This document shows, one piece after another, positions 1 to 42,205 of a DNA stretch of 64,000 bases (the stretch's first letter is position 1; the number at the start of each line of letters is the position of its first letter). The position numbers were made by a program, and so were the translations under genes. The DNA lies in the IMG/VR virus record IMGVR_UViG_3300044799_000154, positions 1 to 64,000 of that record, one strand, 5' to 3'. The notes beneath the pieces were generated by a model. The model did not search any database and was not told the DNA's origin. It worked only from the letters and a program-made list of their open reading frames with translations. The DNA is from a virus.

Positions 1-46
1 AAAAGAACTTAATCCAAGTAAGAGGGATGCTCATTGATACCCTTTT

Positions 47-349
47 GTGATAGATGTGGAAAAGAGACTCTTCTTCTCCATAAATTCTGTGATGGCAAAT
101 ATTATTTCTGCCAAGCAGAAGATTAAAGCTGAAGCTGATGCAAATGTAACTCTTACAAAAGCTAGTGCTGATGCTCAGAAAGTCTTACTAGAAGCTCAAG
201 CTCAAGCTGAATCTCAAAGATTACTTAACCAACAGTTGACTGAGATATACTTACGCTATTTGGCTCTACTGCAATGGGATGGTAAACTTCCCTATTTCTG
301 GGCTAGTGATTCTCCCATACCTTTCATACCTGTAAATCCAACACCATAA
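47..349 (+). CDS. SPFH/band-7 (prohibitin-like) C-terminal domain protein, probably truncated
   Basis: Ala/Glu/Gln coiled coil (KIKAEADA..EAQAQAESQRLL) followed by WDGKLP, typical of the C-terminus of viral SPFH proteins; no N-terminal band-7 domain. Confidence 0.6.
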   Translation: MIDVEKRLFFSINSVMANIISAKQKIKAEADANVTLTKASADAQKVLLEAQAQAESQRLLNQQLTEIYLRYLALLQWDGKLPYFWASDSPIPFIPVNPTP

Positions 350-351
350 AC

Positions 352-396
352 GGAAAGGAAAGGTTCTAAACCTTTCTTATTTCCCTCTTTTTTTTC
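352..396 (+). terminator. putative intrinsic terminator
   Basis: hairpin GAAAGG/CCTTTC followed by a pyrimidine tract with T8, directly after the stop at 349. Confidence 0.5.
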
Positions 397-446
397 TATT
401 AGGAAGTTCTCATTCAAATTCTCCCTCAGGGCTGGAGGTAAAATTG

Positions 447-460
447 CATGGTTAACCATG
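447..460. repeat. dispersed palindrome CATGGTTAACCATG (perfect copy)
   Basis: intergenic 14-bp palindrome; one of at least 12 related sites. Confidence 0.9.
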
Positions 461-614
461 AAAAACGAAGAGCTGTGCAGGTTCGCAAAAAGATAATTCA
501 TAAGTGTAGATATTGTAAACGAATTATTCCAGCTACTTTAGATTTCTGTTGTGAGAATTGTTTGTCTCTTTACAAGAGAACTCATAGACCAATAGTCAGA
601 AAGGTTGTTAAGAA

Positions 615-836
615 ATGAAAGACGCATACAATAGAAAGCTTCAATGTCCTAAATGCAATAGTAAGAAGATAGGATTTATTAAAGATTCAGAAGGAAAATC
701 TTCCAATCTTCTATATTGTGAATCTTGTGGTATGATAGGTTCTGTCCTTGCATTCAGAGCACTTCCTTCTTTACCTGAAAATCCTTCCAGACGAGATTCA
801 GATTTAGAAGACCCAGATGAACCTAGAGCATTTTAA
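615..836 (+). CDS. Zn-ribbon protein with NPSxR tag
   Basis: CPKC..CESCG; ENPSRR near the C-terminus. Confidence 0.7.
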   Translation: MKDAYNRKLQCPKCNSKKIGFIKDSEGKSSNLLYCESCGMIGSVLAFRALPSLPENPSRRDSDLEDPDEPRAF

Positions 837-849
837 AAAGGGATGAAGA

Positions 850-1131
850 ATGTCAGAAAATCCAAGTCGAAGATTAAACAAAGTCTATGTGGTTCTTCTT
901 TTAGAATATCCAGAAGAGGGAGAGGGTGGATATGATTCCGTTGAAGTTGTCTATATAACGCAAGATAAAACCAAAGTAGAAGAGATTAGGAAACTTTGGG
1001 ATACTGTTGAGAAAGAAAAACACCATGATGATAATAAGACAATGAAAGCTCTATCTGATTTGCAACATAAGTTTGGTATTATCTGTTGGTCTGGTGAAGA
1101 ACTTAGAATAGAAGAGAGGGTCTTACAATGA
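850..1131 (+). CDS. hypothetical protein, N-terminal NPSxR tag
   Basis: MSENPSRR; stop overlaps next start. Confidence 0.65.
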   Translation: MSENPSRRLNKVYVVLLLEYPEEGEGGYDSVEVVYITQDKTKVEEIRKLWDTVEKEKHHDDNKTMKALSDLQHKFGIICWSGEELRIEERVLQ

Positions 1132-1373
1132 GACAAGCTACAGGTGGAAATCCTTCAAGTCGTAAGCAGTTATATGCTGTGCTCTTTGAATATCCTTTTG
1201 GATGCTTCTGGAAGTTCATGGAAGCAGAGAATGAGAAGGAAGCCAAACGCCTTTCTATTAGATGGCTTATGAAGTTGGAGAAAGAAGAACTTCAAGATAT
1301 TGTTATAAGAGAAGTAAAGCTAGTTTCCTCTCTGAAAGAAATAACAAAGCTAGATGGGTTGATAATGAAATGA
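1128..1373 (+). CDS. hypothetical protein, N-terminal NPSxR tag
   Basis: GNPSSRK; ATGA coupling at both ends. Confidence 0.6.
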   Translation: MRQATGGNPSSRKQLYAVLFEYPFGCFWKFMEAENEKEAKRLSIRWLMKLEKEELQDIVIREVKLVSSLKEITKLDGLIMK

Positions 1374-1822
1374 AAGCTAATAAACTAAGTTTTGATTCTC
1401 CAAATCCTAGTCGAAGGAAGCAAGTTGTTAGCTTAGATACTTATGCTCATAATTGGGGTATTTTAGTGCCATCCAATTCAGGATTTATTTGGGAACAACA
1501 AACAGATGGAGTAATGTGTAATCATATTCAGGTAGAGGGAATTTACATTCCCCTTCGAGAACCTAATGATTATCTTGCTAAGTTAAGGATAGCTAACTAT
1601 GATGGAAAATCTACTCTTGCTATCTGGAAAAAGATAAAGGAGACTATGAAGCAATGGGAAGGTTTCCAATGGATAGAAGTTGATAATCCTAATCCAACTA
1701 AATTCCCAAATAACCAAGAAGGAATGCAATGGATTAGAATAACAGATTGGTGTTCTTCTTTAGGAAGAGGAAAACAACTTATCGGAGAGACTGTCATACT
1801 CATATATCCCAACTGTGATTAA
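1370..1822 (+). CDS. hypothetical protein, N-terminal NPSxR tag
   Basis: start placed at ATG 1370 (ATGA overlap) rather than 1262; PNPSRR. Confidence 0.6.
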   Translation: MKANKLSFDSPNPSRRKQVVSLDTYAHNWGILVPSNSGFIWEQQTDGVMCNHIQVEGIYIPLREPNDYLAKLRIANYDGKSTLAIWKKIKETMKQWEGFQWIEVDNPNPTKFPNNQEGMQWIRITDWCSSLGRGKQLIGETVILIYPNCD

Positions 1823-2054
1823 AATGGACTGTCCTATAAAACAAAATTGTTTAGCTAAGGATTGGTATCCAATATTCAGAGAAGTTTATTTAGAAAGAAC
1901 ATGGGAAGAATGGGAACGAGAACTCTGCAATAGTGGTCAATATCTAAAATGTTGTTTCTACAATTCAAAAGGCTTTCGTTTTAATCCATCTAAACGTCAT
2001 TCTCAATCAGAGAAAGCCAAGAAAGTAATCAGAATCTTAGAAGGGAAAGAATAA
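1815..2054 (+). CDS. Cys-rich hypothetical protein with NPSxR tag
   Basis: FNPSKR. Confidence 0.6.
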   Translation: MIKMDCPIKQNCLAKDWYPIFREVYLERTWEEWERELCNSGQYLKCCFYNSKGFRFNPSKRHSQSEKAKKVIRILEGKE

Positions 2055-2230
2055 TGCCAAAGCAATGTCCTGTCTGTGGCTATGATTTTGATGACAAAGG
2101 TAATTATTGGATTTGTCATCATTGTGGATTCGTTATCTCTAAGAACATCCATAAAGGTAAAGGTATTCACAATATAAGAAATTTCAATCCGAGTAGCAGA
2201 GATAATTTAGATGTTAGACCCGAAATCTGA
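2054..2230 (+). CDS. small Zn-ribbon protein with NPSxR tag (below ORF-track cutoff)
   Basis: MPKQCPVCG..WICHHCG..FNPSSRD, translated by hand. Confidence 0.6.
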   Translation: MPKQCPVCGYDFDDKGNYWICHHCGFVISKNIHKGKGIHNIRNFNPSSRDNLDVRPEI

Positions 2231-2585
2231 AATAGGAAAAGAAGTATTTGTTTGTGTTATCCATGACAGCGAAGTCTATATAGGACTTCACCGTGAAGCT
2301 ACTTTTTCTTCTTGCAAGAAATTTTTAGATGAAGTTCTCTCTGGTAAAAGGAAGAAATTCAAAATCTGTTTTGGTAAAGGAAAAATACTTGGAGTAACGG
2401 AAGAGAAAAATAAGAAATACGAAGTTTTAATAACTAAACTTTTCTTGAATGATGAAAATAATATCAGGGAAGAAGGAAAAACCTGTTGTTATGCTGATCT
2501 TTGGATTGAATTGGGAGAATATGCTAGAGAGCAATTCTCGAATCAGAATCCTTCAAGAAGAAGAATCTTGAAAGATTTTGAGTAA
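2211..2585 (+). CDS. hypothetical protein with C-terminal NPSxR tag
   Basis: QNPSRRR. Confidence 0.6.
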   Translation: MLDPKSEIGKEVFVCVIHDSEVYIGLHREATFSSCKKFLDEVLSGKRKKFKICFGKGKILGVTEEKNKKYEVLITKLFLNDENNIREEGKTCCYADLWIELGEYAREQFSNQNPSRRRILKDFE

Positions 2586-2606
2586 TCCACCCTGCTGGTG
2601 TGAATT

Positions 2607-2620
2607 CATGGTTAACCATA
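2607..2620. repeat. dispersed palindrome copy (CATGGTTAACCATA)
   Basis: intergenic, 13/14 match. Confidence 0.85.
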
Positions 2621-2635
2621 TTAGTTTAACGGGGC

Positions 2636-2974
2636 TTGGAAGATTTGGATGATATTCAATTTGTAAAGAATGGCTGGATAATGTTAGTGGAACTGATAGA
2701 GAAGAGAATTCTTATTGGTGAAGCTAACAAATGGTTTGAAGATTTCATAATCATGGGTATTACTCATGAGACAATCCATATCGTTATTGATAGCTTAGAG
2801 GGTTTGGAGACTACGGATAAATTTGATAATCTCTTTGGCTATGCAAATCCAACTGTTCTTTTAGTTCCTGAAAATGATTCGGAGTTTGATTCTGTTCAAA
2901 GAAGTAGATTAGAGAAGGTATTTTGGAATGAAAAAGGTAAGCGTAGAGTTAGGTTCTTGGATTCAAATCGTTGA
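2636..2974 (+). CDS. HExxH (zincin-like) hypothetical protein
   Basis: ITHETIH motif. Confidence 0.45.
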   Translation: MEDLDDIQFVKNGWIMLVELIEKRILIGEANKWFEDFIIMGITHETIHIVIDSLEGLETTDKFDNLFGYANPTVLLVPENDSEFDSVQRSRLEKVFWNEKGKRRVRFLDSNR

Positions 2975-3179
2975 TAGCTCAGATGGTAGTTTGGTAACAG
3001 GTCAATTAGAAAAATATTTATCAGACAAACCATTCGATGAAAATAATCTAGCTTTCAAAAGGAGAGGGTATCACATTCCTATTTTTCTTGACCAGATTGT
3101 TCATGTCTTTCCAAAGATTGAATTGAAAGAGAATCCTCAAGATATTAATCCTTCAAAGAGGGAATCTAATGAATCCTAG
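2928..3179 (+). CDS. hypothetical protein, paralog of 39009..39260, NPSxR tag
   Basis: shared GxW..GxxEK..KP..N..RG..FPKIxLK..INPSxR pattern. Confidence 0.65.
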   Translation: MKKVSVELGSWIQIVDSSDGSLVTGQLEKYLSDKPFDENNLAFKRRGYHIPIFLDQIVHVFPKIELKENPQDINPSKRESNES

Positions 3180-3408
3180 TAAGAGACAAGTTACTTGTTT
3201 GGAATGTAAAGAAAAAACTGATGCTGACGAAGTTGTCTGTAAAGAATGTTTTGAATCTACTCAAAATACTGCTTATGATAGTGGTTTTGATGATGGTAAG
3301 GCTGATGGAAAGAAAGAAGGTTATGAATCTGGACACGATGAAGGTTACAATGAAGGATATTCTGAAGCTATTAAGCAAGTTCAAAAAGCTATAGAGAAGC
3401 TGGCATAA
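3169..3408 (+). CDS. Zn-finger plus GxxxG-repeat protein, N-terminal NPSxR tag
   Basis: MNPSKR, CLEC..CKEC, GFDDG/GYESG/GYNEG repeats. Confidence 0.6.
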   Translation: MNPSKRQVTCLECKEKTDADEVVCKECFESTQNTAYDSGFDDGKADGKKEGYESGHDEGYNEGYSEAIKQVQKAIEKLA

Positions 3409-3650
3409 GAACTTGAGAAGTTATGAAGAGGATGACAAAGATTGACAATATTTGCAGTTAGAATCAAAGAATCGGATACCTATAACTACCATGTTTATCT
3501 AGTGGAAGCTAAGAATGAAAATCATGCCAAGAATGTAGCGGAAGCTAAATGGTATGAAAAACATAATATTAGAATAGCAGAAGGAGAAACCCAAGTCTGG
3601 GAAGTAGAATTAGATTTTAGTAATAGAGATAATCCGAGTGTGAGAGGCTA

Positions 3651-3893
3651 ATGGAAATCTGGGTAGAAAGGAAATTAACTAAGCATCAAACACCATGTCA
3701 ATTCTGTCATAGAGAGATAGACAAAGGAGACTTTAGAGTAGTTGTAAGATATAATGGATATCATCAGCAAGATTCATTGTATGCTCATGTTGGATGTCTT
3801 CAGAACTTCACAGAACGAGAATTACTTCGTGCTAAAGAAACTCCAATTACAATAGATGAGAAAGTTAATCCTAGTCGGAGAGATGGACAATGA
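3651..3893 (+). CDS. PARP-type Zn-finger-like protein with NPSxR tag
   Basis: CQFC..I.KG..R....HVGC pattern; similar to 12662..12916. Confidence 0.55.
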   Translation: MEIWVERKLTKHQTPCQFCHREIDKGDFRVVVRYNGYHQQDSLYAHVGCLQNFTERELLRAKETPITIDEKVNPSRRDGQ

Positions 3894-4345
3894 AAAAGAA
3901 AATGGGTATTATAGAAAAAGACCTTAGAGTATCTCTTACCAAATATAAGGAAGATAGAAATCTTCAAGCTCTTTTGAAAGCAATTGTTACTCAATCTGAT
4001 AGCCATATCCATTACTTTTGGCAATATGATTTCTTTCAGAAGAAACTAGAAAAAGTTTGCAAAGAACTGATAAGTAATTCCAATCCTAGTCATAGAGAAG
4101 GAAGAGTAGATGCAGTATCGCCTTGACAAAAAGAGTAAGCAGTATTACATGAAGGTTTGTGCATCTTGCAATGAGATATTTCTCTGTAAAGGAATATGTG
4201 AGAACTCTGAGAAAATATTCTATGAACAAAGTTGCATGTGTCCAGACCATTCAAGTCGAGAAGAGAAAAAGAAATGTCATAAACTTAGCTGGAAATACAA
4301 TCCATCTTACAGACATGAATATCCTCAAATTCAGGAGAAATAATT

Positions 4346-4771
4346 TTGATAATTGCAATTCTCAAGAAAAGAGGACAACTCTATATTGACTTATCATCCT
4401 ATAATAAAGGAAGCAAAGAACTAGAATTCAAAATAAGTGCTTACTATAAAGAAGACCATAAGAAGAAAGAAGAAGTAGGCGATTTGGAATATACGCTTAA
4501 AGTAAACAAAAATGGAATTCCAAAAGAAATCCATGTAGATAATATAGATGTTCGAGAACCTCTGTGGAAGAAAGGATATGGAAGAATACTAATGAGTTTC
4601 TGCCAAGCAATTGCTCAAGCTTCTAACTTGAAAGTAACTTTGTTCTCTTTGGGAGATGTAGTAGGATTCTACAGAAGATGTGGTTTTAATCCAGCTTGTA
4701 AAGACTCCCAAGACATGATATGGAGAGTTAAAAAGAGGAAAAAACATGATGCGAAAAGAGTTAAGATATGA
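4346..4771 (+). CDS. GNAT family acetyltransferase
   Basis: acetyl-CoA motif A (WKKGYGRILM) and GFYRRCGF. Confidence 0.75.
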   Translation: MIIAILKKRGQLYIDLSSYNKGSKELEFKISAYYKEDHKKKEEVGDLEYTLKVNKNGIPKEIHVDNIDVREPLWKKGYGRILMSFCQAIAQASNLKVTLFSLGDVVGFYRRCGFNPACKDSQDMIWRVKKRKKHDAKRVKI

Positions 4772-5001
4772 ATGCTTATTCTGTAATTTCTTTGATGAAT
4801 GCAGAAGATTAGAAGTTAATGAAATTATCATTAGAGCTATTCAAGAGACTGGAAAATGTCCTGATAGATATCCTATCAGAATAAATCCTTCTTGTAGAGT
4901 TCCTTTTTTCTATTGCTCAAGCAAGTATTATGTCATAGGCTCTGAAGAACCTATAGAGCTTGACAAATATTATAGAGTTCCTTCTAGGGAAGTGAAAGAA
5001 T

Positions 5002-5409
5002 ATGTGGAGAAATCTTAGAGAAAAAATATCAAGAACTTTGATTCCGCCAAAATCTAGAATCTATGTTAAACCAACTCAACAACCATCAACGATAGGTATG
5101 AAAGAACGAACTATTTTGTGTGATTGTTCAGATTGTAAAATAGAAAGTAAAGGATTCTTTGAAACGCTTCCTTTAGAAAATGGACATTGGACATCTTGCT
5201 CAGTTCATAAATGTAAAGACTGTGGTAGGATGGGTGGATTTCCACAAACAAACTTAGAAGATTCTATTTTGCATGGAACATTAGAAACTAAACAAGCTCT
5301 TCGTGATGCTGGTATTCCTGTAGATGAATTCATTACTGAATTCAAAAAGAAACACCCAATAACAGATGAACAATTGAATCCATCTAGGAGAGAAATAAAG
5401 AATGACTGA
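5002..5409 (+). CDS. Cys-rich hypothetical protein with NPSxR tag
   Basis: LNPSRRE at C-terminus. Confidence 0.6.
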   Translation: MWRNLREKISRTLIPPKSRIYVKPTQQPSTIGMKERTILCDCSDCKIESKGFFETLPLENGHWTSCSVHKCKDCGRMGGFPQTNLEDSILHGTLETKQALRDAGIPVDEFITEFKKKHPITDEQLNPSRREIKND

Positions 5410-5899
5410 TGATGATTGGTCTTACAAGATAAGTAAAAAGTATTGGCAGAACAAAGAAGAGTTAACAATTAAACTCCCACAAAATATCAAAGATGTCAAG
5501 ACAGTAGCTTATTTGTTGAGAACTTTCTTAGAGAACGAAAAGTGTCCTTTCAAAATTATCGGAGAAATAGAACTTCTCTACTCAGATAAAAGTGCAGATG
5601 CAAATTTAACTGAACATTGGGGTAGAGCTTATATTATAATTCCTGTATTGAAAAGAGGAATCTTAAAGAAACCTCGATATGACAAATTAGAAGAAAAGCA
5701 TTTCATAAAAGTAAGAATTTCTCTTGATAAATCAAATCTTGGAACATGGCAAGAACATTGTTGGGATAATGGAAATTGTCATAGATGGTACATGGAGATG
5801 GAACAAATCAAAGCATGGAAAGAACTTCTAGAGAAATTTGGTAAAACGCTTCCATCTTTGAAATCAAGTTCAGAGATAGGAAATCCTTCAGCTAGGTGA
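5402..5899 (+). CDS. hypothetical protein with NPSxR tag
   Basis: ends GNPSAR*. Confidence 0.6.
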   Translation: MTDDDWSYKISKKYWQNKEELTIKLPQNIKDVKTVAYLLRTFLENEKCPFKIIGEIELLYSDKSADANLTEHWGRAYIIIPVLKRGILKKPRYDKLEEKHFIKVRISLDKSNLGTWQEHCWDNGNCHRWYMEMEQIKAWKELLEKFGKTLPSLKSSSEIGNPSAR

Positions 5900-5903
5900 T
5901 AGC

Positions 5904-6248
5904 ATGAGTGTTTTCCAAGACCCTGATATAGTAGCTATACAAAGGTTCAAAGCAGATGTCTTTATCCTTACTAAAGAGAGAATCAAATTCACACTAGAAG
6001 GAAGTAAAGTATTGAATCCTTTCTCTGCTATATTAGACCCAAGATTCTATCGGGGTAATATTGATATTTTGGAAGATGCTGTTAGGAATAAGAGAAAACT
6101 ATGGCTTATAATAGAAGTAAGAAAAGTTTCAACAACGAATTCAGTATCCCAAGGTTTCTCTGCATCTGGAAAAATCTTTGTTCTCTCAGATGCTCACTAT
6201 GTAAATGAAGCTGAAGAGTTGGAGGATATTAATCCAAGTAAAAGGTAA
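5904..6248 (+). CDS. hypothetical protein with NPSxR tag
   Basis: ends DINPSKR*. Confidence 0.6.
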   Translation: MSVFQDPDIVAIQRFKADVFILTKERIKFTLEGSKVLNPFSAILDPRFYRGNIDILEDAVRNKRKLWLIIEVRKVSTTNSVSQGFSASGKIFVLSDAHYVNEAEELEDINPSKR

Positions 6249-6257
6249 GGTGAGAAA

Positions 6258-6596
6258 ATGGGTAGAAAGAAAATAAGAAATGAAGAATATACTAGAATGA
6301 TTCTTCCAAAAACTACTGATGTAGTAGGAACAGTAGTACAGATGCTAGGCAATGATAGACTTCTAGTTAGACTTCCAGATGGAAAACAGATGATAGCTCG
6401 CATTAGAGGAAAGATGCGAAAGAGGGTTTGGATAAGACAAGGAGATGTAGTTCTAGTATCACCATGGGACTTTGAACCAGAGAAAGGAGACATTTTTTAC
6501 AGATATACACGAGACCAAGTCAAGGAACTAAAGAAACTTGGATTTAAGGTGTATGAACTTGGAGAAGGAAAGAAAACTAGCATCGGAAATAATTGA
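6258..6596 (+). CDS. eif1a: translation initiation factor aIF-1A (eIF1A)
   Basis: LPK..DVVGTVVQMLG..RIRGKMRKRVWIRQGDVVLVSPWDF..KGDI.YRY; GGTGA SD-like sequence upstream. Confidence 0.95.
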   Translation: MGRKKIRNEEYTRMILPKTTDVVGTVVQMLGNDRLLVRLPDGKQMIARIRGKMRKRVWIRQGDVVLVSPWDFEPEKGDIFYRYTRDQVKELKKLGFKVYELGEGKKTSIGNN

Positions 6597-6811
6597 CAGA
6601 GTTGAATGGGCTATCAGAAAAGCTCATCCTAAAGTAGATAAGGTAGGAAAGAACTGTCATGGAAATACACTACTTTATGGTGAGAAATATTTTGACTTAG
6701 AAGATACTCTGACTGAGATTATCCAAGATGCTTATCCTGCATATAGCAAGAAAAAGCAAACTTCATTCAATCCATCAAAAAGAGAATAACGTCTCTAAAA
6801 CGGGGTGAGCA

Positions 6812-6825
6812 TATGGTTAACCATG
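6812..6825. repeat. dispersed palindrome copy (TATGGTTAACCATG)
   Basis: 13/14 match at a gene boundary. Confidence 0.85.
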
Positions 6826-7082
6826 AAGTTGGCATGTACAATTGTCCTGTTTGTAAGAAGAATCTTAAACGAATGGGTGAAGCTTCTATATTGACAGGCT
6901 TACCTAAAGAAGTAGGGAAGGAGATGGATTATTATTACTGTGCTGATTGTCACACGAATATGAATCGTTGTTGCTTTATCTTCTTTAAGGGCATAATATT
7001 CATTTTCTCTGACCATAAAAATTGGGAAGAACTAAGATTCAATCCAAGTGCAAGATATGGTGAAAATTATGAAATGCCCTGA
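6813..7082 (+). CDS. Zn-ribbon protein, family shared with 14544, 15883 and 19657; NPSxR tag
   Basis: CPVC..YYYCADC..aromatic strand..W..FNPSAR. Confidence 0.6.
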   Translation: MVNHEVGMYNCPVCKKNLKRMGEASILTGLPKEVGKEMDYYYCADCHTNMNRCCFIFFKGIIFIFSDHKNWEELRFNPSARYGENYEMP

Positions 7083-7180
7083 ATGTAAAGATACTTTGGT
7101 ATACGACCACATAGAGAATAAATGGTATTGTCTAAAGTGTAAAGCATATCCAGATGTAAAAATGATATTATGGTGAAAGT

Positions 7181-7785: not shown

Positions 7786-7802
7786 CTGACTGGCGGGAAT
7801 TG

Positions 7803-10404: not shown

Positions 10405-10426
10405 TCTCATACATGTCACCTTTTCC

Positions 10427-35468: not shown

Positions 35469-35912
35469 CCCTTCTATGAGAAAACAACTAAGAAAGATTA
35501 TAGATAAAATAGAGATAACTTGGAGTTATCATCTTGCTCATCGGAATGCTCACCATAGAGGTAGACTTGCTAAATGTTATTCACTGCATATTATCTGCCA
35601 TTTGAAGAATTCCAAATGGAAGGATACTCATCTATATTTCTCAGACTTGGAATATAGTATGAAAGACCTCAAGAGAATGGAATATGAATTCACACAGATG
35701 AAAAAGTTCTTTGATGAGGTAGAACCATAATGGCACATTATTTCAATCCTTCTGCTAGACACAACTTTCCAACTAAGCATCAAGAGAATAAGATGCTAGT
35801 AGTTTATTGTCGTTGTGGATTCATGATGAGCTATGACCTTTTCACAGATACCTTTGAATGTCAGAAATGTGGTCTACGTTGTACTCCTGAGGCTCTAACA
35901 AGCTTTATAAGG

Positions 35913-35927
35913 AAAAGATTTAAATAG
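35913..35927 (+). promoter_or_regulatory. putative BRE/TATA box upstream of the candidate RNA
   Basis: AAAAGATTTAAATAG about 20 nt before the stem start. Confidence 0.4.
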
Positions 35928-35940
35928 CAAGAGAAACAAT

Positions 35941-36191
35941 AGATAAGTGAGGAAAGGAACAAGGTATCCAGCAAATTTATAACTATGATTAGTAAAAGCT
36001 GTATTGAGTTATAAACTTTGGTAAATAAAGAATACCTATAAGCCATGGAAGGACAACCGCAATCCTTTCGGTATTTAGGTCTGGAGACAGATAAAGGAAC
36101 ACGCTGTCTTCTATAAATCCTGTCTGGAAATGGCTGTAAGATGGGTGGCTGGAACGACCTCATTCTTTGTTCTTCTTTCCTCAATCTTATT
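35941..36191 (+). ncRNA. candidate structured non-coding RNA (~250 nt), family unknown
   Basis: no + strand ORF; 5' ATAAG-TGAGGAAAG-GAACAA pairs with 3' TTGTTC..CTTTCCTCA..CTTAT; internal stems TTTATAACT/AGTTATAAA, AGCCAT/ATGGCT, AGACAG/CTGTCT. Confidence 0.5.
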
Positions 36192-36196
36192 TTTGA

Positions 36197-36610
36197 GTGG
36201 ATAAAAAAATGAAAGAAAAAGATGTTATTTATATTTCTGGAATAATAGATGGAGAAGGTTGTATTGGTATTTTTAAGGAAAATCCGAAAAGAAAACAACC
36301 AGTTCTTAGACCTTTGATTTCTATTACAAATTCTAATCATCAACTTCTAAAATATCTTCTAAAGAGACTTCCAAGAGTGAAACCAACCTTTTATAAACGA
36401 GATATCATTTTTCATAAAAATTGGACTTTAATATTCAGAAAACAAGAAATTGTAGAATCAATCTTGAAAGACATTCTCCCATTTTTAGTTGCCAAGAAGG
36501 AACAAGCAAATTTAGTTCTAAAATTCATCAATCTGAGAAAACAAAATAATAGATATTCACAAGAAGAATGGAAACTTTACACGAAAGTAAAAAATCTCAA
36601 CAATCTTTAA
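36197..36610 (+). CDS. single-motif LAGLIDADG homing endonuclease
   Basis: YISGIIDGEGCI, ISITNSN, ILPFLVAKKEQA; likely start ATG 36209. Confidence 0.85.
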   Translation: MDKKMKEKDVIYISGIIDGEGCIGIFKENPKRKQPVLRPLISITNSNHQLLKYLLKRLPRVKPTFYKRDIIFHKNWTLIFRKQEIVESILKDILPFLVAKKEQANLVLKFINLRKQNNRYSQEEWKLYTKVKNLNNL

Positions 36611-37009
36611 ATACCTGAGTTTTGATAGTTCTATTGGTGGAGAAAATCCACTTGAATTGACTTGAGGTGAAATGAAATGGAAAAGACGGAAATAGAATTG
36701 CTAGACTCAGAGAATACCTTAGTGAGAGTTTTTAGGTATCCTTCAGCAAAGATTACCAATGCTTCCTTTTGTGAAGATGGAAATGCCAACACTATTACTT
36801 TCTATTTTGATTCTTCATACATAAATGCTTTCACAAACAAAAGGGAAACCCGATGGTGTTATTATCTAGAAAGACTAAAGGATGACATCAAGAGAGCAGT
36901 ATCAGAAGGAGCAGATGTAACTCTTATAATAAGAAGATATGCTATGCGTACTTCTGGGCAGCAAGAAAAAGATATGCACGATTTTTGTGAAGATATCATT
37001 TTCAATTAA

Positions 37010-37047
37010 GACTATTCCTTAAAGAATAGTCAATTCCCTTTTTCTTT
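37010..37047 (+). terminator. putative terminator hairpin plus T tract
   Basis: GACTATTC/GAATAGTC stem right after the stop at 37009, then TTTTTCTTT; a TATA-like TTATATA follows at 37054. Confidence 0.55.
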
Positions 37048-37756
37048 CAAAGCTTATATAGCTCAGTAGAGAGTATGTCTAATGAGGATGTCATTGAAAT
37101 TAGAAGACGTTCTAATCCTTATTTCTGTTAAGATAGAGGAGATTAAAGCAACTTTACCAGATAATGGTAGAAGACTAGAATATAAGTGCTTCATCCTCAC
37201 ACAAGAGCAATGGAAAGTCCTTTGTAAAGATGTAACTTTTAAGAATGAGGCAGACCATGGAAATGCTAATCTTGGTGGTATCCCTGTCAAATTTGATGCT
37301 AATTTATCTGAGATGAAGATTGAATACTTTCAAACGGAGAAGCAAAGAAAGTATTTTCGATTGAAAAGGTCAAGAAAACATGACGTATCAGAAAAGAAGA
37401 TTCAATCCCAACTATAGATTCCCTCATCAGAGAACTGATGACAAGGTGTTGAAAAGTATAGCTCTAAGACAACCTAAGTTCCATTATCTTAGGAATCTAG
37501 AGAAAGTTGGTGGACTTGATGGAATGAGTCTTGACTTTGGAGTATGTTGGATATGTTGGATACGCATAACAGGAGAAGGATTGAACAATTGGAGAAAAGA
37601 ACCATTCTCTGAAAATCGAAGTCATTCTGGTATTTGTCCATTATGTTTACAGGAGAAATGGTCTGGACGAGTATGGTATCCTAAACGATTTGTAATGTAT
37701 ACAGAAATAGGTAATCCAAGTAGAAGAGATAATATAGCACCTGAGATGAGAAGTAA

Positions 37757-38002
37757 ATGCTTGACTTAATCTTGAATATCCTTGCTTTCCTTTTCTTGAC
37801 AATTCCATATTTCTTAGCAGCAATGGGAAAATGGAAAGGGGATTCGTACAAGTTCATTGGCTTCAATGTTATAGCTGGAATCTTAATGATTATTTACTTC
37901 ACATTTTGCTTCTTTAATCCAATACTAATTTTGCTCAATGTAATCTGGAGTGTTGGTGGAAGCATTCAAATGTTCAGAAAATGGAGAAGAAAAATAGAAT
38001 GA
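37757..38002 (+). CDS. small three-TM membrane protein
   Basis: three hydrophobic helices. Confidence 0.6.
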   Translation: MLDLILNILAFLFLTIPYFLAAMGKWKGDSYKFIGFNVIAGILMIIYFTFCFFNPILILLNVIWSVGGSIQMFRKWRRKIE

Positions 38003-38583
38003 AAAAGAATGGAAGAATTCCTCGGAAATTCTATATAGCTCATAGCATTATAGAAAGGGAACATGTAAAAGGAATCTGTCTGAAATTACAAGCAATTGGA
38101 ATTGAGACTTTCAATCCTTTCTATCTGGCAGATGGTTCATGGAGACCTGAAAGACCAGAGATAAAGAGGATTGATGAAGGTAAGCTTGACCCATATTATA
38201 TCAAGAACAAATCAAAAGCAAATGGCATAGTAGAGGCAGATTTAAGATTGATAGAGGCAGCAGATGGCATCATTGCTTTCCTTAAATCTCCAAGTGTAGG
38301 AACTTCTATGGAAATATTCTTCTGCTCATACATTCTTCATAAACCAACTTTTGTTATAACTGAGAAAGCTTTCAAACATGCATGGGTTATGGCTCTAGCA
38401 ACTGAGAGATTTAAGAACTTAGATGATTTCATGAGATGGTATAAACGAACATATCCTGTTAGCTTTCCTAAAGTGGAAGTAGATGGAGCAATAAAATTGG
38501 AGAGTATTGAAGATGGAAGAGAAAGAGACGGAAAAGAAAGAGATGGAAGAGATAAGCAGACCTCTGATACCCATAGTAATTGA
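37981..38583 (+). CDS. nucleoside 2-deoxyribosyltransferase-like protein
   Basis: FYIAH, FNPF, DL..I..ADGIIA, SVGTSMEI. Confidence 0.75.
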   Translation: MEKKNRMKKNGRIPRKFYIAHSIIEREHVKGICLKLQAIGIETFNPFYLADGSWRPERPEIKRIDEGKLDPYYIKNKSKANGIVEADLRLIEAADGIIAFLKSPSVGTSMEIFFCSYILHKPTFVITEKAFKHAWVMALATERFKNLDDFMRWYKRTYPVSFPKVEVDGAIKLESIEDGRERDGKERDGRDKQTSDTHSN

Positions 38584-39008
38584 AGTTAAATCCATCTTAG
38601 ATATGATGGAAGCTTGTCCAAATGGAATAATAATGCATAAGAAATTACAACATCATTTCTATTACTATTACATTTCCTTGGGAGAGACACTTGTAGTTAT
38701 AATGTTGTATAAAACAGACAAACCTTTAAGAAGATACATTGGATATCCAAAAGGAAAAATCTTAGAAGCAGATGAACCAAACTCAGATTGCTTTACACCA
38801 ATCATAGAGGTCAATTGCGACCCTATACTTGAATTAAGTGTAATGGAAGAAGATAAAAATGAATAAGAAAAATAAGATATGCCCTAAATGTGGCAAAGAT
38901 ATGCAGTATATAGAACCCTGTCATGAATGTGGTAGACCGTTCTCATACTGGATTTGCTACAATAGTAAAGAGCATGACAATAAAGAAATATACTATGAGA
39001 GGGATTGA

Positions 39009-39260
39009 GTGAGAAGCATTGCAATAGTAGAAGGAACTTGGGTTAAATTCCTAGAAGATCACAAAGTTATTTTAGGAAAAGTAGAAAAGAAAGATTCAAA
39101 TAAACCTTTGAGCCAAGATAACTTCTGGATTAAAACTAAAAGAGGATTTTATCAACCTAATCTTGAAGATATCATTTATGCATTTCCAAAGATTATTTTG
39201 AAAGACAAACTCAAATCTAAAATAAATCCATCTTTAAGAATCCAAAGAGGTTATCCATAA
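39009..39260 (+). CDS. hypothetical protein, paralog of 2928..3179, NPSxR tag
   Basis: same pattern as 2928..3179; INPSLR. Confidence 0.6.
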   Translation: MRSIAIVEGTWVKFLEDHKVILGKVEKKDSNKPLSQDNFWIKTKRGFYQPNLEDIIYAFPKIILKDKLKSKINPSLRIQRGYP

Positions 39261-39526
39261 TGAATGTTTATCAAAAAGCTGTTGAGAAATGGGGTAAAGA
39301 AGCTCAACTAAATATGATAGTTGAGGAATGTGGTGAATTAATAACAGCTATAGAGCATTGGAAAAGAGGAAGAGGAAATGGCGAATTGCTCCAAGAATGG
39401 GCTGATGTAGAAATCATGCTTTCTCAACTTCCATATATCTTTCCTGAAAGTGTTGGTTATTTCAAAATTCAGAAGAAATATAAAGTTGGAAAATTAAGAA
39501 GAAAAATAAGAGGAAAAGAAGAATGA
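39260..39526 (+). CDS. MazG-like NTP pyrophosphatase
   Basis: EECGELI..EWADVEI. Confidence 0.8.
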   Translation: MNVYQKAVEKWGKEAQLNMIVEECGELITAIEHWKRGRGNGELLQEWADVEIMLSQLPYIFPESVGYFKIQKKYKVGKLRRKIRGKEE

Positions 39527-40617
39527 GAAAATATTATCACCCAGGAATATTCCTAGACACAGACAAATCTTTGATATATGAAATAGAGATTCCTGTATTG
39601 CCAGGAAAACCTTATGCAGAAGTAATGCACATTGGAGACCTCCACATTGGACACAAAGACTTTGCTCCAAGATTCTTAGCCAAATACTTAGCATTCCTGA
39701 AAGCTACTCCAGAGAGAAGAGTAGTTATGATGGGCGATTATTTCGAACATGAAGAAGGTACAAACTTTGTGCATGAGCAAGTAATGGATTTCACTACTCA
39801 AGTAAAAGAATTTGTCAAGTTCTTCACTCCTGTCAGCAAACAAATAGTCTCAATGATTTATGGAAACCATGATGAAAGATATTCAAAGCAAACTGGTTCA
39901 GGAATTGACTTGCTAGATTATCTGAGATTGAAAATAGGAAATCCAGACATCTTCATTGCTCCTCCACAAAGAGGATTGATAATAATCTTCAAAGTAAAGA
40001 ATCCAAATGGTGGATACTTTATTTATCCTGAGTATACTTTGCATTCTTCAACAGGAGCAATAGTTAATGTAGAATCTCAATTTAGGAGAACAGCAGATAA
40101 CTTCGATGTCCCCATCATAGCCCATGGTCACACTCATAAGATATTCTGGAAGGAGAATACACGATTTCTAGTTGCTGAAGATGAGAATGGAAGCTTCTCA
40201 AGAGCAGTTGTTAGACAATATTGGATTTCAACTGGATGCACTCTTAGATTTCCTTCATATGGAGAAACCAAATCAATGCCAGTTCCAGATATGGGATGTC
40301 CCATTATTCGTCTGTATGCTGATAGACATGCAGTTGAATATGTAGACCCAAGAACTACTTATGGATTAGACCAAGAACCTTTCACTGAGAGCTATGAGAA
40401 AGAATTAGGAGAAAGATTAGAAGACCCTCAAGATAAAGAGAAAGAACAAGCAAGTGAATGTGATACAGTAGATTCTCAGGAATTAGATGAAATCAAGAAT
40501 CTTAGATGTCCCGAATGCAGTGGTTATAAAATAGGTTCTAAAGGAACTGAATGGGTCTGTAAGTCTTGTGGAAAAAGATGGGTAAAGAATCCTAGAAAAG
40601 ACAAGAAGCATGAATAG
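39523..40617 (+). CDS. calcineurin-like metallophosphoesterase with C-terminal Zn ribbon
   Basis: GDLHIG, MGD, GNHD and HGHTH. Confidence 0.85.
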   Translation: MRKYYHPGIFLDTDKSLIYEIEIPVLPGKPYAEVMHIGDLHIGHKDFAPRFLAKYLAFLKATPERRVVMMGDYFEHEEGTNFVHEQVMDFTTQVKEFVKFFTPVSKQIVSMIYGNHDERYSKQTGSGIDLLDYLRLKIGNPDIFIAPPQRGLIIIFKVKNPNGGYFIYPEYTLHSSTGAIVNVESQFRRTADNFDVPIIAHGHTHKIFWKENTRFLVAEDENGSFSRAVVRQYWISTGCTLRFPSYGETKSMPVPDMGCPIIRLYADRHAVEYVDPRTTYGLDQEPFTESYEKELGERLEDPQDKEKEQASECDTVDSQELDEIKNLRCPECSGYKIGSKGTEWVCKSCGKRWVKNPRKDKKHE

Positions 40618-40960
40618 AATGTCCTCAACCTCGCCATTAGCTGATGAGATACTAAAGAAGAAAATGGATTGCTCTAGTCAGAACTATAATTTGGAAGCTG
40701 TCTTTATCAATCCAATTGACCTAATCTCCTTACTAACTGATATTAGATTCGAAGATGTTAGTTACTATGCACAGAAGAATGCTCCTCTAGATAGAGGCGA
40801 GGTAGGAATGATTCTAGGAGTCAAGATTATAGTCTCAACTAATGTCCCTCTTCACAAACTTCTATTTTCTGTGAATATGGGAGGATATAGAAGTGTTCAA
40901 GGTCCAGCGTGGGATAAAGAGATAGATGAGCAAGTAAATCCGAGTAGGAGAGATAATTAA
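40610..40960 (+). CDS. stand-alone HK97 major-capsid-like fragment with NPSxR tag
   Basis: FINP..L..LL.D..F.....GEVGMILGVKIIVSTNVP resembles the HK97-fold A-domain segment. Confidence 0.5.
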   Translation: MNRMSSTSPLADEILKKKMDCSSQNYNLEAVFINPIDLISLLTDIRFEDVSYYAQKNAPLDRGEVGMILGVKIIVSTNVPLHKLLFSVNMGGYRSVQGPAWDKEIDEQVNPSRRDN

Positions 40961-42205
40961 ATGTTTGACAACATTTTAGATTGGTGGATATTAATTATGA
41001 CTATCGTGAATGTAGTAGTCATTGGTGGATTCTCATTACTTAGAACTTACTATCAACGTAAGGCTCTTAAAGTCCAAGAAGAGACTCTGAAAGAATCAAG
41101 AGAATATTGGAACTCTTGGCAGAAAAGGTCTCAGAACATTAAAGTAGAAATGAAGGATGAAATGAAGAAGGAAGAGAAAGTTGAAAAAGAGTCTAAAAGA
41201 GTTGACAAGAGAAATAGAGCAAATAAACGCAAGACTCAAAGAGATAAAACTGGAAAAGACCAAGCTTGAGACAGAGATTGAACATCTTGAGGATTCTATG
41301 GCTAAAGAGAAAGGGAAGATTACGACAGCTAACATTAATATTAAGAACTTTACAACTAGACGTTTGAAATCTAGAAAAGAGAGGAATAGAATAGTGAGAG
41401 AAGAAGATAATCTTGAGCAGACTGAAAAAGTCAAGAAGAAACAACTGGACAAAGCTAAGAAAGAGTTCTTTGAAAGCATGAAAAACCAAAAGGACTTTAC
41501 AACTGAGAAATATGGTCCAGATTATCTTCAAGATTTGGGTAATCTATTGATAGAGAATGGAAATAGCCATAATAAGAAGAAGGAGGAAAAGAAAGATGAA
41601 AGCACGAAGTAATCCTTGTCCTGTTCCATGTGAAGAAAAAGAATCTGTTTCTAGGACACGATTTGGAAGACTAAAGAGAACTTTTCGAAATTTCAAGAGA
41701 AGAATATCAAAAGAGAATAAGAAAACTAAGATTAAAAGTGGTGGTCTCATGAGAGGTCAATGGAATCAAAAAGATTTGCCTAAAATCGTAAAGAAAATTG
41801 TGGATAACAATCTTGGAATCACTGACATAGAAATTTATTCTAATGAGATTCGTTGGCATTGTGAGATTAATTATTTTGACTTATTCCCTAAGAAGAAAGG
41901 AAATGAAAATCCAAGTAAAAGGGATGAAAATGAATAATGGGAAAAAGATGTTTAGATATTAAGTGTCCTTATCTCGCATATGATGGGACTTGTCTAATGT
42001 CAAAAGGAGAACTAGCAGATAATTGTCCAGCGAGAGAGAATCTTAGAAATGAATCTAAAGATGTTTGGATAACTAACCTCAAATACGTTAAGAAGAATGG
42101 TAATCCTTCAAAGAGAAAGAATATGAAATTGGTGAGTTGAATGAGAAAAAGACAAAGAAAGGGAAAAGCTGGAGAAGATAAGGCTGATCTGGAAGATACC
42201 AATAC

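Follow-up and report, generated by a model that had tools for sequence, protein, structure and literature searches.

The window, a stretch of 64,000 nucleotides, corresponds to positions 1 to 64000 of a viral contig of 121,517 bp that was analysed in full. The contig is estimated by CheckV to be 92% complete, is labelled 'linear' in IMG/VR, carries no end repeats and contains no repeat, internal or terminal, of more than 182 nt. Its position 1 falls within an ORF, and a stretch of unknown size is missing between the contig end and the contig start. The virus is head-tailed with archaeal-type replication genes. Small plus-strand genes run from position 1 and are followed by replication genes and then by minus-strand structural genes, with portal and TerL last, such that genes are co-oriented over 1–80 kb, or two thirds of the genome. 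The small plus-strand genes of positions 1 to 37000 are of accessory or host-takeover type, with Pfam domains that include aIF-1A, aRF1-like, GNAT, metallophosphoesterase, HD, Topo6A-like, PAPS-reductase-like and ParB-like; one 503-aa ORF (22647–24158) matched, among 5.8 billion proteins, only a fragment of itself. The virus also encodes an ATP-dependent ligase fusion, a LigD-phosphoesterase-like protein, and RadA/Rad51-like and ERCC4 proteins. It is probably a virus of peat-dwelling archaea whose host, judging from the relatives of its topoisomerase gene, is probably a member of Bathyarchaeia. That gene is the sole host clue, and the host assignment hangs on it. Two features of the layout are referred to below:

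46855 to 48390, plus strand: topoisomerase IB gene of eukaryote type; the closest relatives from cells (55% identity) carry the name Bathyarchaeia
450 to 48723, unstranded: all 13 copies of a dispersed palindrome with a GGTTAACC core, which may be regulatory; co-extensive with the depleted zone and early ramp described below

The initial annotation of the window had listed GATC sites at only 2496, 24099 and 39057 to the left of 42186. Exact counting returned these same three sites in 1–42185, compared to 56 in 42186–64000 (59 in total), spanning 42186 to 63583, where about 50 had been claimed. Over the whole contig there are 359 sites: 3 in 1–42185, 356 in 42186–119916, with the final 1,601 nt free of GATC, a zero that is not significant in itself (local Markov expectation 1.7). 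A second-order Markov model predicts 164.9 sites in the left block and tail, where 3 were seen, and 399.4 in the remainder of the contig, where 356 were seen. Likewise, 200 synonymous-codon shuffles within 195 crude longest-ORF calls gave an expectation of 86.6 sites in 1–40000, compared to the 3 observed, and an observed/expected ratio of 1.0–1.2 from 65 to 119.9 kb, demonstrating that sites are tolerated outside the zone. The left/right contrast for GATC amounts to −4.78 log2 units, with a standard deviation of 0.47 among 134 tetranucleotide classes. The proposed left/right difference is thus confirmed against both the Markov and the codon-shuffle expectation, and GATC is subject to restriction-site avoidance, being rarer than composition and coding content predict. 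The core of the zone and the residual sites, all unstranded, are as follows:

1 to 37000: core of the GATC-free zone; 2 sites (2496, 24099), observed/expected 0.00–0.05 per 10 kb
2496 to 2499: residual GATC, in frame as GAT-C, inside ORF 2211–2585
24099 to 24102: residual GATC, close to the end of ORF 22647–24158
39057 to 39060: residual GATC, at the start of the ramp

How the sites were removed is visible in codon choice. Asp-Pro had been noted to be coded GAC-CCN on the left and GAT-CCN on the right, a remark that holds more widely than claimed: ahead of any codon starting with C, Asp is written GAT 3 times out of 42 in the left block, compared to 438 of 551 elsewhere. Ile following a G-ending codon is ATC in 0/175 cases in the left block (201/804 elsewhere), and Ser following an xGA codon is TCN in 0/21 (533/738 elsewhere). 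These codon-context effects are intermediate in 40–57.5 kb, and none was seen for GATC beyond 57.5 kb. The 3,302 nt of non-coding DNA from the left side are devoid of GATC, compared to 19 sites in 3,045 nt from the right side. GATC was purged through context-dependent synonymous codon choice in all three frames as well as from non-coding DNA, and for this reason we conclude that selection acts on DNA words, not on composition.

The inner edge, described initially as sharp and lying at 42 kb, is better fitted by a ramp from about 37 to about 67 kb than by a single step. The ramp gained 7.8 log-likelihood units over the best step with the Markov expectation and 5.7 with the codon-shuffle expectation, for one extra parameter, and its fit begins at 37.0–37.5 kb. 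Observed/expected GATC per 5 kb over 40–65 kb was 0.24 (40–45 kb), 0.40, 0.60, 1.01 and 0.71 (60–65 kb).

37001 to 64000, unstranded: ramp of gradual GATC return, extending past the window to about 67–68.5 kb; covers DNA-replication genes

There is a sharp edge, the terminase-side one, which lies outside the window and for which the evidence comes from relatives and not from this contig. We also examined whether two unrelated viruses had been joined near 42 kb during assembly, as might be suspected of a metagenome-assembly record without end repeats. From run X1, probably the source sample, an independent Logan contig of 25,243 nt covers 35284–53000 without differences, and depth is flat (14.5–16.4) across 33–53 kb, so that the suggested coverage check gave even depth and no junction at the contig level; from run X2, belonging to another study, a 1,619-nt contig covers 41386–43004, again without differences. 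A chimera near 42 kb was rejected at the contig level since independent contigs of two studies bridge the position. Given in addition that the change is a ramp and that rare signatures are common to both arms, we regard the probability of such a junction as negligible.

GATC is not the only palindrome depleted at this end. We scanned 134, 462 and 1,180 k-mer classes without preselection. Words containing GATC led the left-specific losses, followed by GTAC and CCWGG, to which a degenerate-palindrome scan added GGNCC; apart from palindromic, Type II-like sites, no words are conspicuous on the left. A check of other palindromes across the genome, recommended in the initial annotation, thus found GTAC, CCWGG and GGWCC depleted at the GATC-poor end too. 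The zones, all unstranded, are:

1 to 30135: CCWGG-free stretch; first site at 30136
1 to 26880: GGWCC-free stretch; first GGNCC site at 26881
1 to 30000: GTAC-poor stretch; observed/expected 0.23, 0.26 and 0.35 per 10 kb, compared to 0.56–0.80 beyond

None of 100 codon shuffles placed the first CCWGG as far in (shuffle maximum 18006), and 1 of 100 reached the observed first position of GGWCC; GGSCC is ruled out by the genome-wide absence of GGCC. GTAC has 6 sites in 1–20000 where 25.0 are expected. The CCWGG and GGWCC effects emerged from a scan of 215 patterns and involve small absolute numbers (0 vs 4.1 and 0 vs 2.9 expected in 20 kb, respectively). The depletion zones of the four palindromes are nested from one shared end, with that of GATC the strongest and the others shorter. 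Other palindromes are absent from both arms, including CCGG (18 expected), GGCC (43) and GCGC (13) and, among 6-bp palindromes, ATCGAT (30), CAGCTG (21), CTGCAG (20) and others; genome-wide avoidance also covers CGCG and many 6-bp palindromes, and overall palindrome avoidance is equal between the two arms.

Relatives of the virus allowed both edges of the zone to be compared. L002 is colinear with part of the window:

44771 to 57707, plus strand: colinear with L002 at 82–86% nucleotide identity; L002 is not GATC-depleted there

Over 44.8–57.7 kb, L002 contains 48 GATC sites compared to 55.4 expected. Only 13 of its 42 aligned GATC sites are kept in the window, compared to 54% for other tetranucleotides, and 13 of the 23 aligned sites of the window are kept in L002. 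Identity to L002 is even across the ramp (83.7% and 86.5%); GATC alone was lost asymmetrically. On this alignment, the far edge of the GATC zone shifts between relatives. For the outer edge, L092 and L093 were informative, with TerL proteins 96% and 80% identical, respectively. L093 has 64 GATC sites in the 11,955 nt up to the end of a small ORF after TerL and none in the 9,659 nt beyond (25.6–34.5 expected). Across the same step CCWGG falls from 13 to 0, GGWCC from 9 to 0 and GTAC from 10 to 1, while the controls CTAG, CATG, AGCT, TGCA and TCGA remain normal. A long non-coding stretch beside the L093 boundary is likewise free of the four sites, and 16 of the 17 L093 ORFs downstream of TerL have no match in this contig. 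L092, which extends 1,103 nt beyond the contig end without reaching the contig start, has 79 GATC sites followed by none in 2,661 nt (6.0 expected for the last 2,624 nt). In L092 and L093 the outer edge is thus a sharp step just after the terminase operon. A similar pattern was found in G305, a complete 73-kb virus with a TerL 30% identical. A boundary lies ~0.8 kb upstream of its TerL: to one side of it AGCT, CATG, CTAG, TGCA and GATC are no longer found, and they return at differing distances, about 9 to 20 kb; control words are flat, and the genes of the zone are mostly directed away from the boundary. G305 thus has the same design, in a distant virus with five palindromes of its own.

These comparisons bear on two alternative explanations. 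The first, the 'different host histories' of the initial annotation, would make the left arm a module from, or long evolved in, a GATC-restricted lineage, and the rest not. The left arm does vary between relatives (ORF 22647–24158 has no homologue and the L093 ORFs are unmatched), and the tetranucleotide correlation between 0–20 kb and 80–120 kb is low (0.28–0.36, compared to 0.55–0.67 within the right arm), so that some far-left genes may have a separate history. However, both arms lack the same palindromes and avoid palindromes equally overall, there is no signature break at 40 kb, where neighbouring 20-kb segments correlate at 0.71–0.74, and the edge is a 30-kb ramp across conserved replication genes. 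Moreover, identity to L002 is even within the ramp with GATC alone asymmetrically lost, and unrelated L093 sequence at the same position is free of the same four sites. As an explanation of the zone, different histories are therefore unsupported and highly improbable.

The second alternative is a cause other than restriction, such as GATC methylation disturbing early transcription or regulator binding, or a GAUC-cutting RNase hitting early transcripts. In its favour, the GATC signal far exceeds all others, the zone matches one direction of transcription and the span of the dispersed GGTTAACC palindrome, and a palindromic word cannot separate DNA-level from RNA-level selection. We nevertheless consider such a cause very unlikely, since the four palindromes here and the five in G305 behave alike with differing depths and non-palindromic words do not stand out. 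Coding sites were purged in every frame, something that a promoter or operator effect would not require, and the long non-coding stretch by the L093 boundary is also site-free.

On the host side, the 4-bp palindromes with the lowest observed/expected values in 83 Bathyarchaeia-like loci (827 kb) were GGCC (0.46), GATC (0.62) and CCGG (0.63), and a DpnII-family GATC endonuclease is rare, occurring in 6 of 301 sampled genomes of the Bathyarchaeia class. On the viral side, a search for methyltransferases had been recommended in the initial annotation. None of five DNA methyltransferase families (PF02086, PF01555, PF00145, PF05869, PF02384) matched at E≤1 in six frames of the whole contig (92% complete), and the full set of seven Pfam families, covering DNA methyltransferases and GATC nucleases, gave no match over the whole contig. 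Among 70 contig ORFs scanned against Pfam, no known anti-restriction family scored above cut-off, a Lar-like match lying far under it (16.5 vs 28.6 bits); most small ORFs of the contig have no family. No strongly acidic DNA-mimic-like ORF was found in the contig, nor was an Ocr-like protein or a virus RNA polymerase identified in this virus.

The repair-type proteins of the virus raise another explanation, namely that the whole genome enters at once and a cut in the early block stops early proteins, while cuts elsewhere could be survived after early functions have been made, so that sites would be lost only from the block that has to be read first. Survival could be by ligase and end-healing, by the RadA-like recombinase and ERCC4 nuclease, or by an inhibitor. 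The virus encodes the ligase fusion and the LigD-phosphoesterase-like, RadA/Rad51-like and ERCC4 proteins, the zone is a block of early-type genes transcribed from the boundary, and phiKMV-like phages are reported, in the abstract of a preprint, to counter DNA-targeting nucleases by repair that depends on a ligase. However, the ligase genes lie among the minus-strand head genes and are probably late, and an incoming genome present as a single copy does not normally survive a double-strand cut, wherever it falls. This explanation would also have the zone end with the last early gene that the virus cannot do without, rather than at site-specific depths, and the boundary non-coding DNA in L093 is site-free as well. 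We therefore consider expression order alone unlikely.

The probable explanation, in our assessment, is position-dependent selection by host Type II restriction, bearing on the genome end that is first to enter or to act, as in T5 and T7-like phages. The virus relies on carrying no restriction sites, with many palindromes banned genome-wide and GATC, together with three others more weakly, from one end. The zone starts just after the terminase operon and runs inward for at least 44 kb through early-type genes transcribed away from it. Exposure of the left part as first-entering DNA, one of the possibilities raised initially, fits because the purge is at the DNA level, in all frames and non-coding DNA, because three further palindromes (GTAC, CCWGG, GGWCC) are depleted likewise, because in two relatives the depletion is anchored just after the terminase operon, because it fades gradually inward, and because the genes of the zone are transcribed away from the terminase landmark; the polarity of entry is one that we infer. 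A packaging end would be compatible with where the step lies, directly behind the terminase operon in L092 and L093 and next to TerL in G305.

Under positional restriction, the genome would have fixed ends, one of them within the non-coding stretch after the terminase operon, and this end would enter the cell first. Sites near the leading end would be exposed to host Type II enzymes before a viral counter-measure encoded by the same early genes acts. DNA arriving or mattering later would be at lower risk, such that selection against sites would weaken with distance and each restriction enzyme would have its own zone depth. Of this mechanism, we infer where the genome physically ends, in which direction and how slowly it enters, which host enzymes act and what counters them. 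The model leaves unexplained why a counter-measure would spare enzymes whose sites are banned genome-wide.

It is possible, though we hold this only tentatively, that the nested avoidance gradients are an evolutionary record of genome delivery, in which the DNA of such head-tailed viruses, including at least one that is probably archaeal, enters slowly from one fixed end over tens of kb, perhaps pulled in by transcription as in T7. If so, the zone depth of each site would measure how long the matching host enzyme stays dangerous, and a step-plus-ramp palindrome profile would reveal genome ends, packaging type and entry polarity, as well as the active host restriction repertoire of uncultivated viruses, directly from sequence. 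An archaeal virus would then, for the first time, have provided evidence of genome entry that is polar and extended in time.

Several known systems resemble this pattern. T5-like phages are described in PMC10644984 as restricted only through sites in the first-transferred DNA, which holds early takeover genes with a long non-coding stretch beside them, sites elsewhere being tolerated. As in the first-step-transfer (FST) DNA of T5/BF23 (Tequintavirus), sites are tolerated outside the zone studied here and early-type genes lie inside it. However, T5 has terminal direct repeats of about 10 kb, whereas no repeat was seen in this contig, which is incomplete; T5 transfers about 8% of its genome in a discrete two-step process, whereas the zone here makes up at least 36%; and the discrete stop of T5 contrasts with a ramp whose depth differs per site. 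The features of two-step transfer were thus absent (no repeat >182 nt, a ramp edge), with a repeat collapsed in the missing part being possible. T5 protection is broad, covering Types I to III, whereas here many other palindromes stay banned throughout the genome; a probably archaeal host further separates this virus from T5, and first entry is here proposed from sequence alone.

Prokaryotic viruses are reported to avoid palindromic Type II sites genome-wide, GATC being among the most consistently avoided (PMC6286503), and this virus similarly bans CCGG, GGCC, CGCG and GCGC along with many palindromes of 6 bp. The survey worked with ratios for whole genomes, and its text contains neither 'early' nor 'region of'; such ratios would dilute the signal here (359 GATC observed vs about 564 expected).

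T7-like Murciavirus phages that face Mme2I, a Type I system, are reported to be sensitised solely by motifs lying in the region injected first, and the authors predict that restriction selects sub-genomically and that fixed-end packaging is required (PMC12455610). Like T7-like Autographiviridae, this virus has genes co-oriented from the leading end inward (1–80 kb); unlike them, it has no identified Ocr-like protein or virus RNA polymerase, and two thirds of its genome are co-oriented. The Murciavirus result concerns the presence or absence of single Type I motifs and is experimental, whereas ours is a statistical depletion, read from sequence only, of short Type II-like palindromes that extends across tens of kb. 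[quoted passage not shown]

The initial annotation had reported that GATC is avoided on the left of this DNA and common on the right, and this contrast was borne out far above chance. Before position 42186, GATC occurs only at 2496, 24099 and 39057, followed by 56 sites up to the end of the window. The whole contig is a single 121,517-bp record, classed by IMG/VR as linear without end repeats and estimated by CheckV to be 92% complete; positions 1-42185 carry 3 sites, a further 356 follow as far as 119916, and the final 1,601 nt carry none. A second-order Markov model predicted 164.9 sites for the left block and tail together and 399.4 elsewhere (356 observed). A shuffle of synonymous codons, confined to each of 195 crude ORF calls so that the proteins and per-gene codon usage are preserved, predicted 86.6 in the first 40 kb, where 3 are found, and gave an observed/expected ratio of 1.0-1.2 beyond 65 kb. 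GC content is nearly constant along the contig (0.34 to 0.36), and in a left-versus-right scan of all 4-, 5- and 6-mers GATC came far first, at -4.78 log2 (spread 0.47).

Codon contexts show the route by which GATC was removed. In the left block, Asp is encoded by GAT before a codon starting with C in 3 of 42 cases versus 438 of 551 otherwise, Ile by ATC after a codon ending in G in 0 of 175 versus 201 of 804, and Ser by TCN after an xGA codon in 0 of 21 versus 533 of 738. These effects are intermediate in 40-57.5 kb and absent beyond 57.5 kb. Non-coding DNA contains no GATC in 3,302 nt on the left versus 19 in 3,045 nt on the right. Together, the codon contexts and the site-free non-coding DNA demonstrate selection on the DNA word itself, and at least 36% of the genome has been stripped of this 4-bp site.

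Judging by its predicted proteins, the contig belongs to a head-tailed virus with archaeal-type informational genes. Pfam groups on the left arm comprise aIF-1A, aRF1-like, GNAT acetyltransferases, phosphoesterases, an HD protein, a Topo6A-like Toprim protein, a PAPS-reductase-like protein and a ParB-like protein. Replication and repair genes follow after ~42 kb (eukaryote-type topoisomerase IB, ribonucleotide reductase, a DHH protein, a RadA/Rad51-like protein, an ERCC4 nuclease and a family B polymerase), and Pfam matches on the - strand include an HK97-type capsid protein, a LonB-like protease, a ligase fusion and the portal.

Layout of the contig and genes referred to in the text
1 to 80.3 kb, + strand: long ORFs
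up to ~42 kb, + strand: about a hundred small genes (ORF calls, Pfam)
22647-24158: 503-aa ORF without a Pfam family
24224-25117, left arm: PAPS-reductase-like gene
26288-27310, left arm: ParB-like gene
37981-38583, left arm: nucleoside 2-deoxyribosyltransferase-like gene
46855-48390, + strand: full-length eukaryote-type topoisomerase IB, 55% identical to Bathyarchaeia proteins
81.5 to 117.4 kb, - strand: long ORFs
117958-119574, + strand: large terminase (TerL, Pfam), the last + strand ORF

The nearest cellular relatives of the topoisomerase IB, at 55% identity, bear the name Bathyarchaeia, and this gene is the sole basis on which we would guess a Bathyarchaeia host. Copies 72-88% identical to it are present on other large contigs. 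Both sequencing runs carrying the virus DNA (X1 and X2) are labelled peat metagenome. Relatives identified by protein matches sit on contigs of 129,419, 126,883 and 77,649 bp. When 50-62.5 kb and 20-32 kb were compared by megablast with 50,697 phage records, no close DNA relatives emerged, and metallophosphoesterase and PolB searches of viral_contigs returned no relatives; the PolB alignment yielded one distant fragment (34% identity) with ordinary GATC, 66 versus 72.0 expected. The left arm is variable: the 503-aa ORF has no homologue among 5.8 billion proteins apart from a fragment of the same ORF. The PAPS-reductase-like, ParB-like and nucleoside 2-deoxyribosyltransferase-like genes may possibly have DNA or nucleotide modification functions.

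Palindrome avoidance is extreme across the whole virus genome. CCGG (18 expected), GGCC (43), GCGC (13) and CGCG (3.5) are absent from all 121.5 kb and likewise from four related virus contigs, L002, L092, L093 and L094. More than 20 6-bp palindromes are also absent contig-wide, among them ATCGAT (30 expected), CAGCTG (21), CTGCAG (20), AACGTT (14), CTCGAG (11), GGTACC (10), TACGTA (8.5) and a dozen others. With GATC excluded, the two arms have a summed observed/expected of 0.82 (left) and 0.81 (right) for 4-bp palindromes, and of 0.70 and 0.76 for 6-bp palindromes. After GATC-containing words, the next left-specific losses in the 4-6-mer scan were GTAC (-0.83 log2) and CCWGG (-1.66), and a scan of 215 degenerate palindromes added GGNCC, which here is GGWCC. 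These three depletions start from the same end as the GATC zone and extend less far. CCWGG first appears at 30136 (none of 100 shuffles had a first site so far in) and GGWCC at 26881 (reached in 1 of 100), while GTAC numbers 6 versus 25.0 expected in the first 20 kb and then runs at 0.56-0.80 of expectation. Pooled observed/expected for CCWGG, GGWCC, GTAC and GGWWCC is 0.15, 0.15, 0.31, 0.56, 0.67, 0.64, 0.72 and 0.88 per successive 10 kb, the GGWWCC part of the series not being independent. GGWWCC and GGNNCC were rejected as separate signals because they contain GGATCC and GGTACC. On this genome alone, the CCWGG and GGWCC depletions are only suggestive, coming from small numbers and a multiple-pattern scan.

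Of the sharp change first described at ~42 kb, the contrast stands but the sharpness does not, since a ramp outfits the best single step. GATC observed/expected is 0.24, 0.40, 0.60, 1.01 and 0.71 in 5-kb bins from 40 to 65 kb, and a ramp from ~37 to 67-68.5 kb, with one extra parameter, beats the step by 7.8 log-likelihood units under the Markov expectation and 5.7 under the codon shuffle. A chimeric assembly junction near 42 kb, which would make the contrast an artefact, is not supported: in X1, the probable source run, an independently assembled 25,243-nt contig spans 35284-53000 with zero differences and a flat depth of 14.5-16.4, and in X2, which belongs to another study, 41386-43004 is covered by a contig of 1,619 nt, again with zero differences. 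Beside the main X1 contig (depth ~16), short 151-nt contigs with 12-15 differences and a depth of ~2 occur across 33-53 kb, suggesting a related strain, ~90% identical, in the same sample. A palindrome with core GGTTAACC (full form CATGGTTAACCATG) has all 13 of its copies at 450-48723, inside the GATC-poor zone and the first part of the ramp; many of them overlap the ATG at a gene start, and no copy was found in the contig's remaining 73 kb or in L093.

The ramp could be compared with the related contig L002, which is colinear with 44771-57707 at 82-86% identity and has ordinary GATC there (48 versus 55.4 expected). Only 13 of 42 aligned L002 GATC sites are kept in the window, versus 54% for all other tetranucleotides; in the reverse direction, 13 of 23 aligned window sites are kept in L002. 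Of 205 words compared, GATC is the one whose window-to-L002 count ratio is lowest, and many of the replacements are GATC to GACC, a synonymous Asp change. Because identity hardly varies along this stretch (83.7% and 86.5%), the GATC loss reflects site-specific change in place and not module exchange, and the far edge of the zone moves between relatives. The initial annotation had alternatively proposed that the two parts have different host histories. Tetranucleotide signatures do drift, with correlations of 0.71-0.74 between neighbouring 20-kb segments and 0.28-0.36 between far left and far right, a pattern that fits graded selection and also allows some separate history of far-left genes. 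Different host histories as the source of the contrast are not supported, as both arms avoid palindromes alike and identity to L002 is even.

At the other end of the contig, GATC is normal up to 119913 (12 versus 11.4 expected in 117.9-119.9 kb). The final two sites fall inside a 121-aa ORF overlapping the TerL end, after which 1.58 kb to the contig end hold no ORF of at least 55 codons. Counting this 1.6-kb tail as part of the zone was rejected, because with a local expectation of only 1.7 its lack of GATC alone is not significant. Because the contig begins within an ORF, part of the sequence must be absent, and a search of viral_contigs with the contig end sequence revealed no bridge across the contig ends.

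Two contigs recovered by a profile of TerL relatives settle that the terminase-side edge is sharp. In L093, whose TerL is 80% identical (nucleotides ~77%), GATC occurs 64 times in the 11,955 nt that end with the homologous small ORF and not once in the next 9,659 nt (25.6-34.5 expected). At this point CCWGG drops from 13 to 0 (5.7 expected), GGWCC from 9 to 0 (4.8) and GTAC from 10 to 1 (12.8); CTAG, CATG, AGCT, TGCA and TCGA remain normal. In L092 (TerL 96% identical), 79 GATC sites precede a terminal stretch of 2,661 nt that lacks the site; for the last 2,624 nt the computed expectation was 6.0. The layout of L093 is that of the contig, with TerL, the small ORF, ~2.8 kb poor in ORFs and then small + strand ORFs. 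Only 1 of its 17 ORFs after TerL, the small ORF, matches the contig; the remaining DNA is independent sequence, belonging either to a different gene set or to the part missing from the contig. Whichever applies, this independent DNA in the same place lacks the same four sites. Within the non-coding DNA that follows the terminase operon, which has otherwise diverged, lies a conserved ~45-60-nt element, CATTAAAGTGTAT...ACTTTAC...GTAAACCC, with a short inverted repeat, a candidate packaging, terminal or promoter signal.

Positions of the conserved element
contig: 121,113-121,156 (17113-17156 of L091, a stretch of the contig's own right end)
L092: ~13,120-13,200
L093: 13,627-13,670

The same design was found in a distant complete virus, G305 (73,253-bp record, 114-nt end repeat), which has a family B polymerase and a TerL 30% identical. 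AGCT, CATG, CTAG, TGCA and GATC are nearly absent left of ~60.9 kb, and all five are back within 60,920-61,537, just upstream of TerL at 61,667. Leftward of this boundary, AGCT is back by ~51.4 kb, TGCA, CTAG and CATG by ~47-50 kb with partial depletion to ~44 kb, and GATC returns gradually, to ~40 kb; the far edges are nested, 9-20 kb from the boundary. The controls GTAC, ACGT, TCGA and CCGG are flat, and most ORFs of the zone lie on the - strand, directed away from the boundary. GCGC and CGCG are absent from G305 genome-wide. Among 20 TerL loci scanned, with at least 3 kb required on both sides and L092 under the scan's expectation threshold, strong contrasts occurred at L093 and G305 and a single weak contrast at two more.

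A GATC-targeting host defence had been suggested at the outset. In Bathyarchaeia, the DpnII family was found in 6 of 301 sampled genomes of the class, the choice of host itself being a guess from topoisomerase IB. In 83 Bathyarchaeia-like loci, the most under-represented 4-bp palindromes are GGCC (observed/expected 0.46), GATC (0.62), CCGG (0.63) and CTAG (0.73), with GATC down to 4 versus 35.7 expected in the lowest single locus (L065). Counter-defence genes were sought and none was recognised: of seven Pfam families looked for over the whole contig (five covering DNA methyltransferases, two covering GATC nucleases), none matched. Pfam searches of 70 contig ORFs gave no known anti-restriction family above cut-off, and there is no Ocr-like acidic protein, the most acidic left-arm ORFs reaching only -0.11 net charge per residue.

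Several facts have to be explained. First, the near edge is sharp and lies beside the terminase gene, with zone genes transcribed away from it. Second, the far edge is graded, site-specific and mobile in evolution. Third, only Type II-like palindromes are involved. Lastly, the sites are the same in relatives and others in G305. The best-supported reading is that the zone is first-entering DNA exposed to host restriction, as the initial annotation had offered; the edge, the gradient and the palindrome pattern favour it, and its key step is one that we infer. The landmark after the terminase operon would be a fixed genome end that enters the cell first, and the danger from each host restriction enzyme would decay with time after entry. 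Such an end combined with decaying danger would be expected to produce a sharp near edge, a graded, site-specific far edge and transcription directed away from the near edge; for sites banned genome-wide, enzyme-specific neutralisation would have to be assumed. Headful packaging that starts at a boundary pac site was rejected by reasoning only: either packaging direction brings terminase-side DNA in with or before the zone, which misfits the sharp edge and the normal site density there.

To our knowledge, nothing is known of DNA delivery by head-tailed archaeal viruses, and we know of no cultured virus-host system for Bathyarchaeia. The literature searched contained neither nested regional gradients, a conserved near and mobile far edge, an archaeal setting nor this scale. 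It also yielded no work on restriction-site avoidance confined to a phage early region and nothing further on depleted restriction sites in first-injected phage DNA; the palindrome-avoidance studies found on archaeal viruses are not regional, and the text of a Bathyarchaeia virus paper has neither "GATC" nor "topoisomerase". New here are a setting that is probably archaeal, a zone covering no less than 36% of the genome, several sites whose graded depletions are nested from a single end, and a near edge that is conserved beside a mobile far edge. The contig shows how large an imprint first-entry restriction may leave. If the pattern is general, palindrome profiles would offer an inexpensive way to predict, from sequence alone, the genome ends, entry polarity and host restriction specificities of metagenomic viruses. 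The contig also shows that avoidance ratios computed over entire genomes lose much of the signal.

Phenomena of this kind are already known from T5-like and T7-like phages, in which restriction acting mainly on first-entering DNA has been shown experimentally (PMC10644984, PMC12455610). In T5-like phages, restriction works only via sites in the DNA transferred first (PMC10644984), the principle that we propose here, and in the T7-like Murciavirus only motifs in the first-injected region matter (PMC12455610). The authors of this 2025 paper argue that restriction selects on a sub-genomic scale, that fixed-end packaging is required and that bioinformatic surveys have ignored site position (PMC12455610); a large site-avoidance survey is whole-genome based (PMC6286503). 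In the T5-like and T7-like phages the first-entry principle is experimental and bacterial, whereas in our contig it is inferred from sequence alone, in a probable archaeal setting.
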